A DNA stretch of 64,000 nt from Candidatus Iainarchaeum sp. (GTDB lineage Archaea; Iainarchaeota; Iainarchaeia; Iainarchaeales; JACQJH01), in NCBI GenBank assembly GCA_016205145.1, contig JACQJH010000002.1:489696-553695 (forward strand), in the 5' to 3' direction. The translations under genes and the position numbers were made by a program. This document shows positions 46,277-50,321 of the stretch, piece by piece. Positions within the stretch are counted from its first letter, which is position 1. Every line of letters begins with the position of its first letter. The notes below the pieces were generated by a model. The model saw nothing but the letters and a program-made list of their open reading frames with translations. It was not told where the DNA came from and made no database searches.

Positions 46277-46350
46277 CGGAAACAAAGCAAATTCAAGAGC
46301 AAAAGGAATAAAAACCGGAAAGAAAAAACGGCGAACCGCGAAGCCAAAAG

Positions 46351-47097
46351 TCAAAGCCGGGCATTTCCGGAATTAAATTCTATGACCTTATTCCACAGTA
46401 TAGCACCATTTTTGTTACAAAAATCGTTAATGAACTCTCCGGTAAACTTGTTTATAACTTCGCTCTTGCGTTGTCTGAAAGAATCATTGAGTTTTTTAGA
46501 TCGATATCCTATCGGGTCAACTATCAGAATATAGAAATCCTTGGTTCCGCTTATCCTATTCCAGAAATTCTGACCGCACATTTGGGTTATGAAACCTTTC
46601 TTCACCAATGTTTTCTGATTTCCATACGATATGCCCAAAATGCACTGAACATCAGATATATTCCTGTTCTGCTTCACTATACGCATTGCGGTTTTGAAAT
46701 CATTTTCCAATGCTTTCCATTGGCTGCTATTGCCCCAATTCAATCCAGACTTTACAGATACCAGATGTCTCGTTTTCTTTGTTTGAAATTCAAAATCAAT
46801 CCCTGATGCAGAAGATTTCGTTGCGTTAAGGGTTTTTTCCGCGACAAAAATTGCCAAGTGCTCCAAAAATTCTCCAAAAATCTCTTCCTCTGATGAAGAT
46901 AACTTGGCGTCCAGTATAGATGTAACTAGCTCGCTTGCGGTTACAAGATTTTTCGCCCTATATAAGTAAGGATTCTTCCGCTTCAAGAGTTCTTTGAGGC
47001 TTGTTTTTTCCAAACTCTGTAGGCGTGCGGTGTGAAATTCTGCTATGTGTTCTTTCACAAAATCTTCCACTTCGTCCAATTGGATTTTTTTCATCAA
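46351..47097 (-). CDS. putative type II restriction endonuclease (hypothetical, AT-rich)
   Basis: 248-aa ORF immediately downstream of, and overlapping, a DNA methyltransferase in a sharply AT-rich segment. No family-diagnostic motif was recognised; the call rests on context. Confidence 0.45.
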   Translation of the reverse strand: MMKKIQLDEVEDFVKEHIAEFHTARLQSLEKTSLKELLKRKNPYLYRAKNLVTASELVTSILDAKLSSSEEEIFGEFLEHLAIFVAEKTLNATKSSASGIDFEFQTKKTRHLVSVKSGLNWGNSSQWKALENDFKTAMRIVKQNRNISDVQCILGISYGNQKTLVKKGFITQMCGQNFWNRISGTKDFYILIVDPIGYRSKKLNDSFRQRKSEVINKFTGEFINDFCNKNGAILWNKVIEFNSGNARL

Positions 47098-47992
47098 ATA
47101 ACCTCTTTTCTGCTACCTTTTTATATTCTGACAATATGTCAATCATAAGGTAATTTCTGTTGAGCCTAAGGCATGCTACTCCCGTAGTCCCAGAACCTGC
47201 AAAAGGGTCCAAAACCAAATCATTTTCTTTTGTAAATAGGCGGATAAACCACGTCGGGAGGTCAACCGGAAACACAGCACTATGGTTCTTGTTGCCGCAT
47301 TCCGTCGGCATGTGCAGAACATTTGAAGGATAAACTTTGGATTTACCGACCCAGTTTGCTATCTTCTTGCCAAATCCGCTGCCAACCTTTGAGGTGGCGC
47401 GTCTCAAATCACTGGCGCTTAAATTCGCGAGACGCGTTTTGGACCATTCCCCAACAGGCACCATGACCTCTTCCTGATACATTCTGAACTTTTTTGATTT
47501 GTTGAACTGCAGGCACCGTTCCCAAGCATCCCTAAACCTGTTCGGCCACTTGCCAGGGTGGGTATTCTTCTTGTGCCAAATGAACTCTTCAGTCCATAGC
47601 CAACCCTGAGTCTTTAACTCTTTTATCAAATCCAAGACGTAAGTATGGCGTTCCCCGTTTTCAACCCTTTCTTTGATATTAAGAATAAATGTGCCTGTGG
47701 GCTTCAAAACCCGCAAAAATTCTTTTGATTTAGGCAAAAACCATTCCACATATTCATCCGGTGCGATGCCCCCATACGTGTTTTTCCTGCTGTCGGCATA
47801 TGGGGGGGAGGTCACAATGAGATTCACTGAGTTATCGGGAACTTCTTTTAGCATTTGCCCACAGTCGCCAGTGAGATACTGGTTTACGAATGCATTGGGC
47901 GCGTTTTTACCCATATTTTCTATTATGCCGGATTGTCCTATTAAAGCATAGTTATCAGGATAAACCGTTTTTGTTTCAGAACTACCCAACAT
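46958..47992 (-). CDS. DNA methyltransferase, N6-adenine/N4-cytosine class (beta group)
   Basis: 344 aa. Motif IV (N)LIVTSPPY precedes motif I DPFAGSGTTGVA (beta-class order), with a ParB/N-terminal-like target-recognition region. Confidence 0.8.
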   Translation of the reverse strand: MLGSSETKTVYPDNYALIGQSGIIENMGKNAPNAFVNQYLTGDCGQMLKEVPDNSVNLIVTSPPYADSRKNTYGGIAPDEYVEWFLPKSKEFLRVLKPTGTFILNIKERVENGERHTYVLDLIKELKTQGWLWTEEFIWHKKNTHPGKWPNRFRDAWERCLQFNKSKKFRMYQEEVMVPVGEWSKTRLANLSASDLRRATSKVGSGFGKKIANWVGKSKVYPSNVLHMPTECGNKNHSAVFPVDLPTWFIRLFTKENDLVLDPFAGSGTTGVACLRLNRNYLMIDILSEYKKVAEKRLFDEKNPIGRSGRFCERTHSRISHRTPTEFGKNKPQRTLEAEESLLI

Positions 47993-48088
47993 TATCCACC
48001 CATAAAAAATTGCAAAAGTGATTTTTAAATGCTTGCATGGCGGATTTCCGCTCAGATTAAATAAACCGATTGGCGCGGCTACCGCGGA

Positions 48089-48571
48089 CTACAATTTTTT
48101 CTGCAGGCTCTGGCTCGGCAGGATTGCGGTCTTGGAAATTTCCGACATTACGACAAGGGTTTTCACGTCGATTATGCCGTCGACCAGGCCGACCTTGTTT
48201 ATGAGCGATTCCGCGCTTTCAAGGTCGGAAACGACTATTTTTGCGAGAAGGTTGTATTCGCCCAGGACCTGGTAAAGCTCGACAATGGAATCCATTGCCA
48301 GCAGTTTTTTTATCACGTCGCGGTTCTTGGAGATTTCGGAGCGCATCTGCACGTAAATCGGGTTTTCGAAGCCCAGCGCCTTGAAGTTGAGGTTGGCCGT
48401 TATCGATGAGACGATTCCGCGCTTTTTGAGCATTTCAACGCGCTTCTTGATCGCGACGTCCGTCAGCTTCGCCTGGCGGGCAATCGCGGAAAACGACGCC
48501 CTGCCATCCGAAAGCAGCGCTTCCAAAATGATGCGGTCTATCCTGTCAAGCTCGACGCGCCTCAAAACCAA
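48089..48571 (-). CDS. lrp: Lrp/AsnC family transcriptional regulator
   Basis: 160 aa. HTH (DRIDRIILEALLSDGRASFSAIARQAKLTDVAIKKRVEML) plus a RAM domain. Confidence 0.8.
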   Translation of the reverse strand: MVLRRVELDRIDRIILEALLSDGRASFSAIARQAKLTDVAIKKRVEMLKKRGIVSSITANLNFKALGFENPIYVQMRSEISKNRDVIKKLLAMDSIVELYQVLGEYNLLAKIVVSDLESAESLINKVGLVDGIIDVKTLVVMSEISKTAILPSQSLQKKL

Positions 48572-48698
48572 CCCCGTTAACTATTCTAACTACAAGTGCT
48601 TAAAAATTTAGCTTTTCTAAATGCGCCAGCCGGCTTCGGGGGATAGCAAACCAAAAAGCCCGCTGGTGTTTAATCTGTTTGCTGGCAGGATTTATTGT

Positions 48699-50321
48699 AT
48701 GCCGGGCGAAAACGTCGTCATCGACGAAATAATCGAGAAAATCGCAAAGGAATGCGAGGAAGCCAAGGCGACAAAATGGGACATAATCAGGATTGTGAAG
48801 GAACTCGAAAGCGAGAAAGGCGCGGACATGGAAAGCATGCGCCAGAAGGCGCTTGAAATCCTTGAAAGGCTCAATCCGGAAGCGGCGAGGATTTACGCCT
48901 CATTCTACAGGATGTCCGTGCACAACTCCCAGCAGGAAATAAGGCCTTTTGACCGCGGCAACATCGTGAAGTCATTGCTGCGCGAAACAAAGATTTCGAG
49001 GAGCGCGGCCGAAAAAATCGGAAGCGAAGTCGAGGACAGGCTCAAGGACCACAAAATAGCCTATCTTACAACCTCGCTCATCAGGGAAATGGCGAACGCA
49101 AAGCTCCTCGAATACGGCCTTGAAGACGTGCGCAACGAGTACGCGAGGGTCGGGCTGCCGGTGTTCGACTTGGAAAAAAAAATACTCAAAAACGAGACAG
49201 GCCTGGAGGAAGCGTTCGAGGAATTCAGCCTTGTCAGGGCAATCCCAAAAGAGCTCAGCGAACTCCATTTCAATTCCGAAATTTTCATAGACGACCTTGC
49301 GGGCTTCGCGAGCAGGGCGCTCGCATGCTCCGTTTCAGTCGGCAGGCAGAAAACCGCCTTGCACGCGCTCAGGGAATTTTCGATGAAAAGCAGGCAGCTT
49401 GACGGCCTTTTCCTGCACAACGCGTGCTTCGATTCGTTCAACCATTCGTTTTCCGGAAGCCCTGACTGCCAGCAGGCATTCGTTGCGGCTGAAACCTGCC
49501 AGTCGCTGCTGCAGAGAAACGGTTCCAGGGGCTGCATCGGCCTGTCCCTGTTCGCGCCCCCGGAATTGAAGCTCAAGGACGCGGAAAAAAAGGCCGCGGC
49601 AGATTTTGCCGAGGCCTTCGCATCCGAATCCGCGAAAAATCCGCAGGACTGCTTTTCATTGAAGGCATCTGTTGACGACCAGTTCAAGCACAAGCTGTTG
49701 AGCGATGGCGCGAAAAGGAAAATCACGTTCATCAACTGCACCGAACGCAACAACCTTGCGTTCTGCAACGACCTCTGCTCGGAAAAAAACGCAATTCTCT
49801 GCTCGGTTTCAATCAACCTGCACAGGATTTGCCTCGAAAGCCCGCGCAACGAAACAGTGTTTTTTGAGGGCCTGACGGAAAGCATGGCGGCCGCAAAACA
49901 ATTATGCGAACTCAAGGCGGGGCTGCTCGCAAAAAAGCCGGATTTTGAGAAATTCTCGTTCCAGCCCGACGGAATGGAAAAAATAGTTGCCTTGTCGCCG
50001 CCAACCGAGGCGGCCGGCATTCTTGCAGAAAATGCGGATGCCCATGAGCGGGTGGCGTTGGCGGAAAAAATCGTGAAACATGCGATGGCGGAGTTCCCGG
50101 AAGCGCAAATAAGGCCCCTGCATTCCCAGGAAGCCAGGAAGAGATTCCAGAAGGCCTGCAGGGAAAAATTCGGGTTCGAGGCGGAAATGGATGACCGGCC
50201 ACAGCTTTGCCAGAAAAGCGGGTTCCTGGCGAAAAACTTTGTTGCCGTTGCACAGGCGAGGAGCGTCAATGAATTCGAAGAACTGCTGAAAAAAGGCGTG
50301 CCGCTTATAAGGCTCGTTTAA
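48699..50321 (+). CDS. ATP-cone domain-containing protein, uncharacterized (540 aa)
   Basis: Residues about 95-175 match the ATP-cone pattern (RPFDRGNIVKSLL...YLTTSLIREMANAKLLEYGLEDVRNEYARVG). The remaining about 370 aa are Cys-rich with no glycyl-radical or P-loop motif. The start is set at MPGENVVIDEII. Confidence 0.6.
   Translation: MPGENVVIDEIIEKIAKECEEAKATKWDIIRIVKELESEKGADMESMRQKALEILERLNPEAARIYASFYRMSVHNSQQEIRPFDRGNIVKSLLRETKISRSAAEKIGSEVEDRLKDHKIAYLTTSLIREMANAKLLEYGLEDVRNEYARVGLPVFDLEKKILKNETGLEEAFEEFSLVRAIPKELSELHFNSEIFIDDLAGFASRALACSVSVGRQKTALHALREFSMKSRQLDGLFLHNACFDSFNHSFSGSPDCQQAFVAAETCQSLLQRNGSRGCIGLSLFAPPELKLKDAEKKAAADFAEAFASESAKNPQDCFSLKASVDDQFKHKLLSDGAKRKITFINCTERNNLAFCNDLCSEKNAILCSVSINLHRICLESPRNETVFFEGLTESMAAAKQLCELKAGLLAKKPDFEKFSFQPDGMEKIVALSPPTEAAGILAENADAHERVALAEKIVKHAMAEFPEAQIRPLHSQEARKRFQKACREKFGFEAEMDDRPQLCQKSGFLAKNFVAVAQARSVNEFEELLKKGVPLIRLV

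Follow-up and report, generated by a model that had tools for sequence, protein, structure and literature searches.

Two genes on the minus strand of a Candidatus Diapherotrites (DPANN) contig, a DNA methyltransferase gene (M) and a presumed restriction endonuclease gene (R) directly downstream of it, run into each other over an unusually long stretch. This raises the question whether the pair is a genuine restriction-modification (R-M) system and, if so, what the overlap between the two genes represents. We analysed the pair (46351-47992) within the surrounding 64-kb stretch of DNA, hereafter referred to as the window. Overall, we consider it quite likely that the locus is a horizontally acquired, C-protein-independent type IIP M-R operon in which M carries a passenger read-through tail. 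In most respects it is an ordinary two-gene R-M defence module; the sole curiosity is its 137-nt overlap, which is found in several related modules as well.

Gene order and neighbours

The features of the locus are collected in Table 1. The initial annotation had placed the pair between topA and lrp, and the domain matches of both flanking genes agree with this. On the minus strand M precedes R. The ORF encoding R comprises 248 aa if a TTG is taken as its start (46351..47097), and 247 aa if translation begins with the ATG at 47094. The intergenic stretch between R and topA is likely to combine the transcription stop of M-R, formed by its T6 and T5 tracts, with the promoter region of topA; oligo-T termination is established in archaea.

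Table 1. Features of the M-R locus and its flanks, in coordinates of the window
Feature	Position	Strand	Basis or remark
M, beta-class DNA methyltransferase, 344 aa	46958..47992	-	ORF and PF01555
R, predicted type II restriction endonuclease, 247 aa	46351..47094	-	ORF and PF14511
M/R dual-coding overlap, 137 nt	46958..47094	-	sequence
GAGG, Shine-Dalgarno-like, for R	47102..47105	-	sequence
A7 homopolymer ATGAAAAAAATCC, directly after the R ATG	47085..47091	-	sequence
Intergenic upstream of M (lrp stop to M start), 96 nt	47993..48088	-	
TATA-like A/T-rich box TTTAAAAA	48029-48022	-	candidate promoter of M, from the sequence alone
Intergenic downstream of R (R stop to topA ATG)	46277..46350	-	T-rich tracts T6 and T5
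topA	ATG 46276		domains Toprim/Topoisom_bac/Zn ribbon
Lrp/AsnC regulator gene (lrp)	48089..48571		

The endonuclease

Profile match and predicted fold clearly assign R to the type II restriction endonucleases of the EcoO109I/PmeII family (PF14511). The Pfam model RE_EcoO109I matches R with 228.3 bits (cut-off 22.5, E 9e-68) over profile positions 2-197 of 198. Using the AF2 model of R (pLDDT 91.3) as query, Foldseek returned EcoO109I (1wtd/1wte) as the top three PDB structures (E 2e-8, TM 0.62-0.68, full length), and these are the only PDB matches at E < 1e-3. The identity between R and EcoO109I is 17-19%, and EcoO109I was detected in the PDB neither by phmmer with the single sequence nor by hmmsearch with a 27-sequence profile. 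As these sequence and profile searches gave no relevant match, it is the Pfam model and the similarity in fold that connect R with EcoO109I. No NCBIfam or PADLOC model matches R.

In total 995 homologues of R were found. Those at 60-62% identity carry the NCBI name 'PmeII family type II restriction endonuclease', and R itself is at present annotated, with a shortened start, as 'cytosolic protein'. Six residues (E69, E70 and E78, which lie in a helix, and D100, E102 and K115) are invariant in the 27 aligned sequences and are candidate catalytic residues; two positions ahead of K115 this alignment has Ser, Ala, Asn or Gly, and never an acid. The downstream ORF had been described as lacking a recognisable family motif, a description that has to be abandoned in view of the PF14511 match and the EcoO109I fold of the model. 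The homology is to a nuclease family and not to a non-nuclease one.

The methyltransferase

M was proposed to be a beta-class N6A/N4C methyltransferase with SPPY before DPFAGSGTTG, and the present results bear this out. Motif IV (SPPY, residues 62-65) precedes motif I (DPFAGSGTT, residues 262-270), which is the beta permutation, and the protein is matched by PF01555 (E 3e-43) and by the PADLOC model MTase_II (5e-47). Its best PDB sequence match is the N4C enzyme M.PvuII (2e-29, with residues 38-301 aligned). Two entries named 'DNA cytosine-N4 methyltransferase' follow at about 1e-22, and m6A enzymes match more weakly (1e-9 to 1e-12). An S-P-P motif is generally taken as the mark of m4C specificity in this family. 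Given the SPPY motif together with M.PvuII as the best match, M is probably an N4-cytosine (m4C) rather than an m6A enzyme; the earlier 'm6A or m4C' can be narrowed to the m4C side.

The catalytic core of M covers approximately residues 37-302, with the C-terminal tail starting at 299 by sequence. In the AF2 model the core is well modelled and the last helix ends at 302; the remainder (residues 306-344, pLDDT 25-28) is predicted to be disordered. At the other end of the protein, an N-terminal extension (residues 5-26) is common to the closest homologues, which favours the ATG at 47992 as the start of M over the Met27 chosen by NCBI.

Pairing of M and R

Of the 94 related loci, 91 have a methyltransferase of the M family immediately upstream of R and in the same orientation, and for this reason the R-M call stands. 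Together with the assignment of R to a nuclease family this upholds the pairing that was proposed at first, and with such a constant gene order M is no orphan methyltransferase. In the operating system M would methylate and thereby protect the sites of the host, and R, as a predicted PD-(D/E)XK nuclease, would cut the unmodified ones. A DPANN genome hereby gains a confidently identified R-M system. The related M-R loci are found in archaea, in many bacterial phyla and on small mobilizable plasmids; one and the same R-M module has been exchanged among DPANN archaea, bacteria and such plasmids.

The start of R

As an explanation of the long overlap it had been suggested that R truly starts at a non-ATG codon further in. 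This candidate was rejected: the Met encoded by ATG 47094 is the common start in all 27 aligned homologues, a GAGG is found 7 nt upstream of it, within conserved 'AEKRL' codons of M, and the N-terminal helices of the model (6-29, 33-39 and 42-47) are confidently predicted (pLDDT 85-94). Purine-rich GGAGG-like elements occur at the matching place in relatives, and the Pfam match of R sets in as early as the second profile position. NCBI places the start at a GTG (Val13, yielding 235 aa), other gene callers arrive at 111-226 aa, and at every long-overlap locus the callers either shorten R or omit M. Gene callers tolerate a same-strand overlap of roughly 60 nt, and the shortened R calls reflect such limits. 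Same-strand overlaps well beyond about 60 nt can be real, and where they exceed this tolerance R will be truncated, or M lost, systematically in the databases.

Reality and distribution of the overlap

The M frame extends 137 nt past the ATG of R and 140 nt past the upstream TTG, so that the overlap of about 140 nt reported earlier is accurate. The shared stretch encodes R codons 1-45 together with the last 45 sense codons and the stop of M, the M frame lying one base upstream of the R frame. The stop itself (TAG, 46960-46958) arises across the conserved Tyr45-Arg46 codons of R (TAT AGG).

The overlap is a real, inherited feature. In two independent Logan assemblies (L095 and L096) the whole locus agrees with the window at 100% identity, and the overlap is consequently no assembly error peculiar to this contig. 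Ten related loci (L081-L084, L086, L092, L099-L101 and L106) also have an overlap of 137/143 nt. An artefact, in which a sequencing or assembly frameshift erased the stop of M or in which R starts further downstream, would fit the way gene callers treat R and M in all long-overlap loci, as well as the presence of an A7 run at the junction. Nonetheless, the independent assemblies are identical, the ten other loci show the same architecture (most of them without A7), and R is conserved from Met1 onwards with confident helices. The artefact reading, including the frameshift considered in the initial annotation, has by now been largely refuted and its chance of being correct is negligible. Programmed frameshifting or transcriptional slippage at A7, giving a +1 M-R fusion, was likewise rejected, as the run is missing in most long-overlap relatives (L081, L082, L083 and L092 lack it). 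Of the three explanations offered for the overlap at first, a possible translational interplay between M and R is the one that is left.

Across the family the median M/R overlap is 14 nt and most loci have 4-32 nt; among related loci the lengths are 4, 14-32, 76-95 and 137-143 nt. A tail of equal length is present in 31 of the 113 methyltransferase homologue clusters, and 34 of the 113 have at least 80 residues after the DPF motif, in a match list ranked by a score that favours sequences with a tail. In the methyltransferase tree, three or four subclades are dominated by long tails.

What the shared bases encode

Over the 135 nt that the two genes share, identity amounts to 62% in the R frame and to 35% in the M frame (R being higher in 45 of 45 pairs), and the entropy peaks at the third codon positions of R. 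L104/L105, the closest relative (79% identity in R), has the tail of M cut to about 10 aa with R intact, by one change that is synonymous in R. In view of the conservation of the R frame but not of the M frame, the predicted disorder of the tail and its loss in the closest relative, the 46-aa tail is regarded as mainly passenger read-through, poorly conserved and without a functional domain. Synonymous divergence in the lineage of the window is 0.53-0.58 both inside and outside the overlap, with no drop inside.

Could the tail instead be a functional part of the methyltransferase, that is, a basic, disordered extension that would bind DNA or interact with R? Arg, Lys, Ser and Thr are abundant in it, its length is kept in the 31 clusters mentioned above, and in L081/L082/L083/L092 synonymous divergence is mildly lower inside the overlap (0.31-0.34 vs 0.51-0.55, p 0.02-0.06). 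Against this stand the unequal identities of the two frames over the same bases, the very low pLDDT, the fact that tails in this family usually measure 0-30 aa, and the loss of the tail in the closest relative. Moreover, M.PvuII and the other solved relatives stop at the end of the core. We regard a functional tail as highly improbable.

The passenger reading may nevertheless be incomplete. Using an exact dynamic-programming calculation with synonymous resampling over 45 codons, the probability that the M frame is open was estimated at 0.03-0.08 for the clade of the window, 0.004-0.04 for L099-L101 and 1e-4 for L086. An open frame is thus somewhat less probable than expected under neutrality, and with the long-tail-dominated subclades this leaves room for more than a pure passenger. 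Selection may act to keep the frame open, or the overlap may have a part in translational control.

Expression and control of R

C-controlled systems have a small HTH controller gene upstream of R, usually overlapping R. No HTH ORF was found either in the 96 nt that separate lrp from M or at the junction of M with R. The Lrp/AsnC gene next to M belongs to the conserved host synteny and is also present in relatives without the R-M pair. A search for an RNA hairpin hiding the ribosome-binding site of R gave a minimum free energy of -16.4 kcal/mol (z -0.83), which resembles that of shuffled sequences.

In our proposed scheme R would be translated from its own ATG, with both this codon and the GAGG inside the 3' end of M. 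The M frame, which has no early stop in the clade, would be read for 45 codons over the N-terminal helices of R up to the Tyr-Arg TAG. Because ribosomes on M would cross the initiation site of R and terminate far downstream, initiation of R is probably independent and partly occluded, which may keep the output of R below that of M.

In a stronger version, selection would have favoured the long overlap as a means of translational control: occlusion of R initiation by M ribosomes, combined with an open M frame that blocks termination-reinitiation coupling, would fix R at a low level relative to M without a C protein. Selection would then act on the position of M termination and not on the tail peptide. 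Consistent with this, the frame stays open in several lineages with synonymous sites largely randomised (0.53-0.70 of identical-residue codons differ), at neutral probabilities per lineage of 1e-4 to 0.08, though the long-overlap loci were partly picked for length and these probabilities are conditioned on the outcome. The dominance of long tails in the methyltransferase subclades points in the same direction, yet the ranking of the match list favours tails. At-risk sites (a T-ending codon before an AA/AG/GA codon) have 0 T inside the overlap against 7-44% outside, an absence that follows from the definition of an open frame. An unconstrained tail sequence fits selection for frame openness only, and the window is without a C gene.

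Other type II systems, such as Cfr9I, are known to use M/R overlap or hairpins to control translation (review PMC12707154), whereas the C/R gene overlap of PvuII, the one system in which such an arrangement was tested directly, had no regulatory effect (PMC2997769). In the present family overlaps of 4-32 nt suffice for most members, the closest relative does without the tail and keeps an intact R, and the junction has no accompanying RNA structure. Weighing these points, we think it unlikely that selection keeps the 137/143-nt overlap to set the R:M ratio without a protein regulator in a clade of EcoO109I/PmeII-family R-M modules that occur largely in DPANN archaea. Should this be the case, the overlap would throttle initiation of the nuclease and take the place that C proteins, antisense RNAs or promoter methylation have in the control of other type II systems.

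Probable horizontal acquisition

The region 46351-47992 has a GC content of 41.5% (M 43.3%, R 38.3%), against 51.6 +/- 1.9% in the other 592 segments of that size (z = -5.4), none of which is so low. The AT-rich contrast that first drew attention to the locus is therefore real, even though the figures given for it (38-40% against 55%) were somewhat overstated. GC3 is 0.42-0.45 in M and R versus 0.68-0.73 in topA, lrp and the nrdD-like gene. In L097 and L098, the only syntenic relatives at hand, the order (nrdD-like)-lrp ... topA-179aa-NFACT-CDC48 is kept; these relatives are distant (topA 61% identical). Their lrp-topA slot holds a Na+/H+ exchanger, with or without flavodoxin-like genes, and no R-M pair. 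Horizontal acquisition of the M-R pair is supported because of the GC and GC3 contrast together with the other genes in the slot of both relatives. The qualification 'recent' is plausible from the unameliorated GC3, which sets no date. As to the flanks, for which a check for direct repeats or integration scars had been suggested, only short, imperfect direct or inverted repeats of chance length surround the pair, no tRNA is present in 38-54 kb of the window, and no integrase, transposase or other mobility gene lies beside M-R.

Comparison with known systems

EcoO109I (1WTD/1WTE) and R belong to the same Pfam family and have the same fold over their full length; EcoO109I is a type IIP PD-(D/E)XK nuclease, as is predicted for R, and each measures about 250-270 aa. 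EcoO109I recognises RG^GNCCY. [quoted passage not shown] AvaII (GGWCC) is described as structurally related to EcoO109I (PMC7337904), and the site of PmeII is GGWCC (bioRxiv 10.1101/2021.02.10.430591). All three enzymes share recognition of a GGNCC core and cleavage with a 3-nt 5' overhang, and PmeII and AvaII are partnered by m5C methyltransferases (bioRxiv 10.1101/2021.02.10.430591; PMC7337904), in which they differ from the nuclease in the window with its N4/N6 beta-class partner. The likeness of PmeII to R runs via the NCBI name of the 60-62% identical homologues, and AvaII is not among the significant Foldseek matches of R in the PDB.

R probably recognises a GGNCC/GGWCC-type palindrome, which is a lead and not a result. 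Palindrome avoidance was uninformative on the recognition site: in the 64-kb window GGWCC has an observed/expected ratio of 0.63 and GGNCC of 0.71, and many unrelated palindromes are at least as depleted (GATC 0.37, CTAG 0.24).

M.PvuII (PDB 1BOO) and M have the beta-class motif order in common, with SPPF in M.PvuII and SPPY in M. M.PvuII ends at the core, whereas M adds the read-through tail and an N-terminal extension of about 35 aa. PvuII also differs in its nuclease and in being under C control.

Counterparts of the whole locus are uncharacterised modules on small mobilizable plasmids of 5-7 kb (Citrobacter pCS36-4CPA and plasmids of Acinetobacter, Salmonella, Klebsiella and Aeromonas). 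In these, members of both families are arranged and oriented as in the window, and their genes overlap. Their M is 63% and their R 38-42% identical to those in the window; the hosts are bacteria, and the annotated overlaps are 8 and 53 nt against 137 nt. Such a plasmid module has been proposed as a probable R-M system (PMC5935869). In Cfr9I (M/R) and PvuII-like (C/R) systems, too, a single transcript carries both genes, and the nuclease gene starts within or beside the end of the one that precedes it. Those overlaps stay within about 20 nt, whereas the one in the window is too long for ordinary termination-reinitiation and has no hairpin. The graded series of overlap lengths in the family, from 4 through 14-32 and 76-95 up to 137-143 nt, forms a natural set for asking whether length tunes the expression of the nuclease.

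Locus layout

The pair consists of M, a predicted beta-class DNA methyltransferase, and R, a predicted endonuclease; the M reading frame runs past the ATG of R for 137 nt. Two independent Logan contigs match the window at 100% identity throughout the M-R locus.

Features of the M-R locus and its neighbours (window positions)
Feature	Position	Strand	Product	Remark
M ORF	47992 to 46958	minus	344 aa	
R ORF	47097 (TTG) or 47094 (ATG) to 46351	minus	248 or 247 aa	
A7 run	47085-47091	minus		R codons 2-4, within the dispensable M tail
topA	ATG 46276		694 aa, identical to database entry P0241	downstream of M-R; the ATG is the real start
Lrp/AsnC regulator gene	48571..48089			upstream of M-R
Divergent ATP-cone/NrdD-like gene	48621-50321	plus	566 aa	beyond the Lrp/AsnC gene

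Identity of the two enzymes

The initial annotation left R without a recognizable family. R nonetheless matches PF14511 (RE_EcoO109I) with 228 bits over the whole profile and has 995 homologues, several of which bear the NCBI name 'PmeII family type II restriction endonuclease'. EcoO109I was not reached from R by sequence or profile searches of the PDB, but its structures (1wtd/1wte) are the only significant PDB matches of the AlphaFold model of R (pLDDT 91.3; E 2e-8, TM 0.62-0.68, full length). Pfam family and fold match both place R in a nuclease family, not a non-nuclease one. The sites of PmeII (GGWCC; bioRxiv 10.1101/2021.02.10.430591) and EcoO109I (RG^GNCCY; PMC7337904) make a GGNCC-type sequence a sensible lead for the R site, nothing more, and palindrome depletion within the 64-kb window did not discriminate the recognition site. 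In the same window GATC is far rarer than expected (61 observed against 166 expected, ratio 0.37). CTAG is also under-represented (7 against 29), and GANTC and GTNAC are likewise low, a hint that the source genome has further restriction systems or is under other restriction pressures.

M matches PF01555 (E 3e-43) as well as PADLOC type II methyltransferase models, and its motif order (SPPY, then DPFAGSGTT) is the beta permutation. In a PDB sequence comparison its top solved relative is M.PvuII, an N4-cytosine enzyme (2e-29, full length); two 'DNA cytosine-N4 methyltransferase' entries are also among the best, with m6A enzymes far behind. Given that N4-cytosine enzymes match best and that, in beta-class methyltransferases, m4C is associated with a motif IV of the S-P-P-aromatic form, m4C is a better prediction for the M product than m6A.

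Pairing and spread of the module

An R profile scan of species-representative genomes yielded 80 loci and a metagenome scan 14 more. In 91 of these 94, R is immediately preceded on the same strand by a methyltransferase belonging to the same family, which rules out an orphan methyltransferase and upholds the call of a type II restriction-modification (R-M) pair. The exceptions are L009 and L052, with no methyltransferase match upstream of R (in L052 the R start is 157 nt away from the end of the contig), and L090, where the R start is off the contig. Mobilizable plasmids of 5-7 kb from Acinetobacter, Salmonella, Klebsiella, Aeromonas and Citrobacter also carry the module (identity to the window proteins 63% for M, 38-42% for R); for one plasmid, pCS36-4CPA, carriage of an R-M system has been called probable (PMC5935869). 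Judged by homology, the window pair is a standard type IIP module of a known, widely mobile family, itself newly described and uncharacterised.

Two relatives differ from the intact pair. In a metagenome contig (Ga0209211_10003865, L092:3001-3744) an R homologue of 75% identity has lost the near-invariant Gly of LG[IV]SYG to an in-frame stop and has Trp instead of Gly in the conserved SG motif. M with its long tail is intact there, so that the locus looks like a nuclease in decay next to a methylase that survives. In P0220, a methyltransferase homologue of 335 aa, the core continues in frame into the last ~35 nuclease residues (…NRFTKMFLTDYCDEAGNINWDRLVEFNSGN…), apparently the result of an R deletion, with an orphan methylase left behind whose C-terminus derives from R.

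A genuine and unusually long overlap

Met1 of R is invariant in 27 homologues aligned from residue 1, residues 1-47 form three confidently modelled helices (AlphaFold), a GAGG lies 7 nt 5' of the ATG, and the Pfam match begins at profile position 2. On these grounds the R start further downstream that the initial annotation had considered was rejected. A frameshift was likewise rejected, given the identical Logan contigs and relatives sharing a 137- or 143-nt architecture: the 137-nt overlap is genuine.

It is also unusually long, as noted initially, and stands out within the family: the median over 91 junctions is 14 nt (modes 4, 14, 20, 23 and 32 nt). Junction geometry is fixed, with the ATG of R within the M codons right after a conserved 'AExRL' and the R frame at +1 relative to M. 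Consequently, an M-frame stop arises only where an R codon with T at its third position is followed by one starting with AA, AG or GA. Overlaps of 137 or 143 nt occur in six metagenome loci (L081-L084, L086 and L092), in L099-L101 (found via methyltransferase homologues) and in L106; a tail of exactly the window length, or two residues longer, is present in 31 of 113 methyltransferase homologue clusters. All long tails end at a stop made by the conserved NPYL(Y/F)(R/K) codons of R.

Since gene callers cannot handle the long overlap, the family (window 46351-47097, L095, L099-L101, L106) is mis-annotated in databases. R is labelled 'cytosolic protein' and shortened to 235 aa (from a GTG at Val13, NCBI), or is called as 111 aa (Logan, L095:1130-1465) or 197-226 aa elsewhere, and the methyltransferase gene is uncalled in L106.

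The A7 run was rejected as a recoding signal: it is missing from most long-overlap relatives and therefore probably incidental. A +/-1 slip there would abolish R and spare the M core.

Is the tail functional?

The Pfam domain of M stops at residue 296 and the final helix of its AF2 model at 302, followed by a predicted disordered tail (residues 306-344, pLDDT 25-28). Comparing ten lineages over the same 135 nt gives an identity of 62% in the R frame against 35% in the M frame (R higher in 45/45 pairs), and variability is highest at R third codon positions, which are M first positions. R of the window and R of its relatives differ at synonymous sites to an equal degree within the overlap and beyond it (0.53-0.58). 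In the closest relative (Micrarchaeota archaeon CG08, L104/L105:3097-4744, R 79% identical), a lone Val GTT before AAA, synonymous in R, creates an M-frame TAA ten codons into the tail and leaves an overlap of 29 nt; beyond it the frame is still open and recognizably homologous. Here the long tail was lost recently and R stayed intact.

The tail is probably in the main a passenger, but 'pure passenger' may be an incomplete description: open M frames are more frequent than expected under simple neutrality. When calculated from the codon usage of the respective R gene, the exact probability that 45 successive codons lack a stop is 0.03-0.08 for the window subclade, 0.004-0.04 for L099-L101 and 1e-4 for L086, figures conditioned on loci picked for long overlap. 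Three or four subclades of the methyltransferase-core tree are dominated by long tails, the match list favouring tailed proteins, and in one subclade synonymous divergence is mildly lower inside the overlap (p 0.02-0.06). Because of both biases, we regard selection keeping the M frame open across R as possible, with a low probability, and the evidence that the long overlap has a function as weak at most.

Expression

The M-then-R operon is conserved, the R start and its SD-like element are internal to M, and the tail reads through R codons. We propose that M and R would share a bicistronic transcript on which R is initiated independently, and that ribosomes translating M would cross the R start and terminate 137 nt downstream. 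Given that distance, termination-reinitiation coupling is unlikely and partial occlusion of the R start likely; such occlusion would give M the advantage over R. RNA folding gave no hairpin at the junction. In PvuII, direct tests gave the C/R overlap no regulatory role (PMC2997769), so such a role should not be assumed here. An ORF scan of the locus found no C gene. In a long-overlap relative (L100:2684-2911) a 75-aa ribbon-helix-helix gene (PF26688, RHH_12) directly upstream of M could encode a regulator; the window has nothing comparable.

Probable acquisition in a variable slot

The segment 46351-47992 has 41.5% GC, compared with 51.6 +/- 1.9% across the remaining windows of equal size (z -5.4, none as low). 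The contrast noted initially thus holds, but the percentages quoted (38-40% against about 55%) overstate it. GC3 is 0.42-0.45 in M-R against 0.68-0.73 in neighbour genes, and the module is 5-9 GC points under its flanks in four other related loci. Two long-contig relatives (L097 and L098; topA 61% identical) share the flanking synteny of lrp, topA, a ~180-aa gene, NFACT-R and CDC48. Between lrp and topA (L097:2261-4916, L098:2364-3578; window counterpart 46277-48088) they carry a Na+/H+ exchanger without the R-M pair, so the interval is a variable slot in the source lineage; in L097 it also holds flavodoxin-like and unidentified genes. The variable slot and the unameliorated GC3 support horizontal acquisition of the pair, in line with the initial annotation. 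The integration scars it had suggested looking for did not appear: a repeat comparison of the flanks, a tRNA scan of 38-54 kb and the neighbouring genes gave no flanking repeats, tRNA or mobility genes around the pair.

The NrdD-like gene upstream of lrp is also present in L097, and relatives keep the homologue of its product beside lrp (543 aa in L097). In the window this protein scores below threshold for both the ATP-cone (24.5 bits, cut-off 25.8) and anaerobic ribonucleotide reductase NrdD (22.9, cut-off 26.2). It may represent an NrdD-like protein that has diverged or degenerated.
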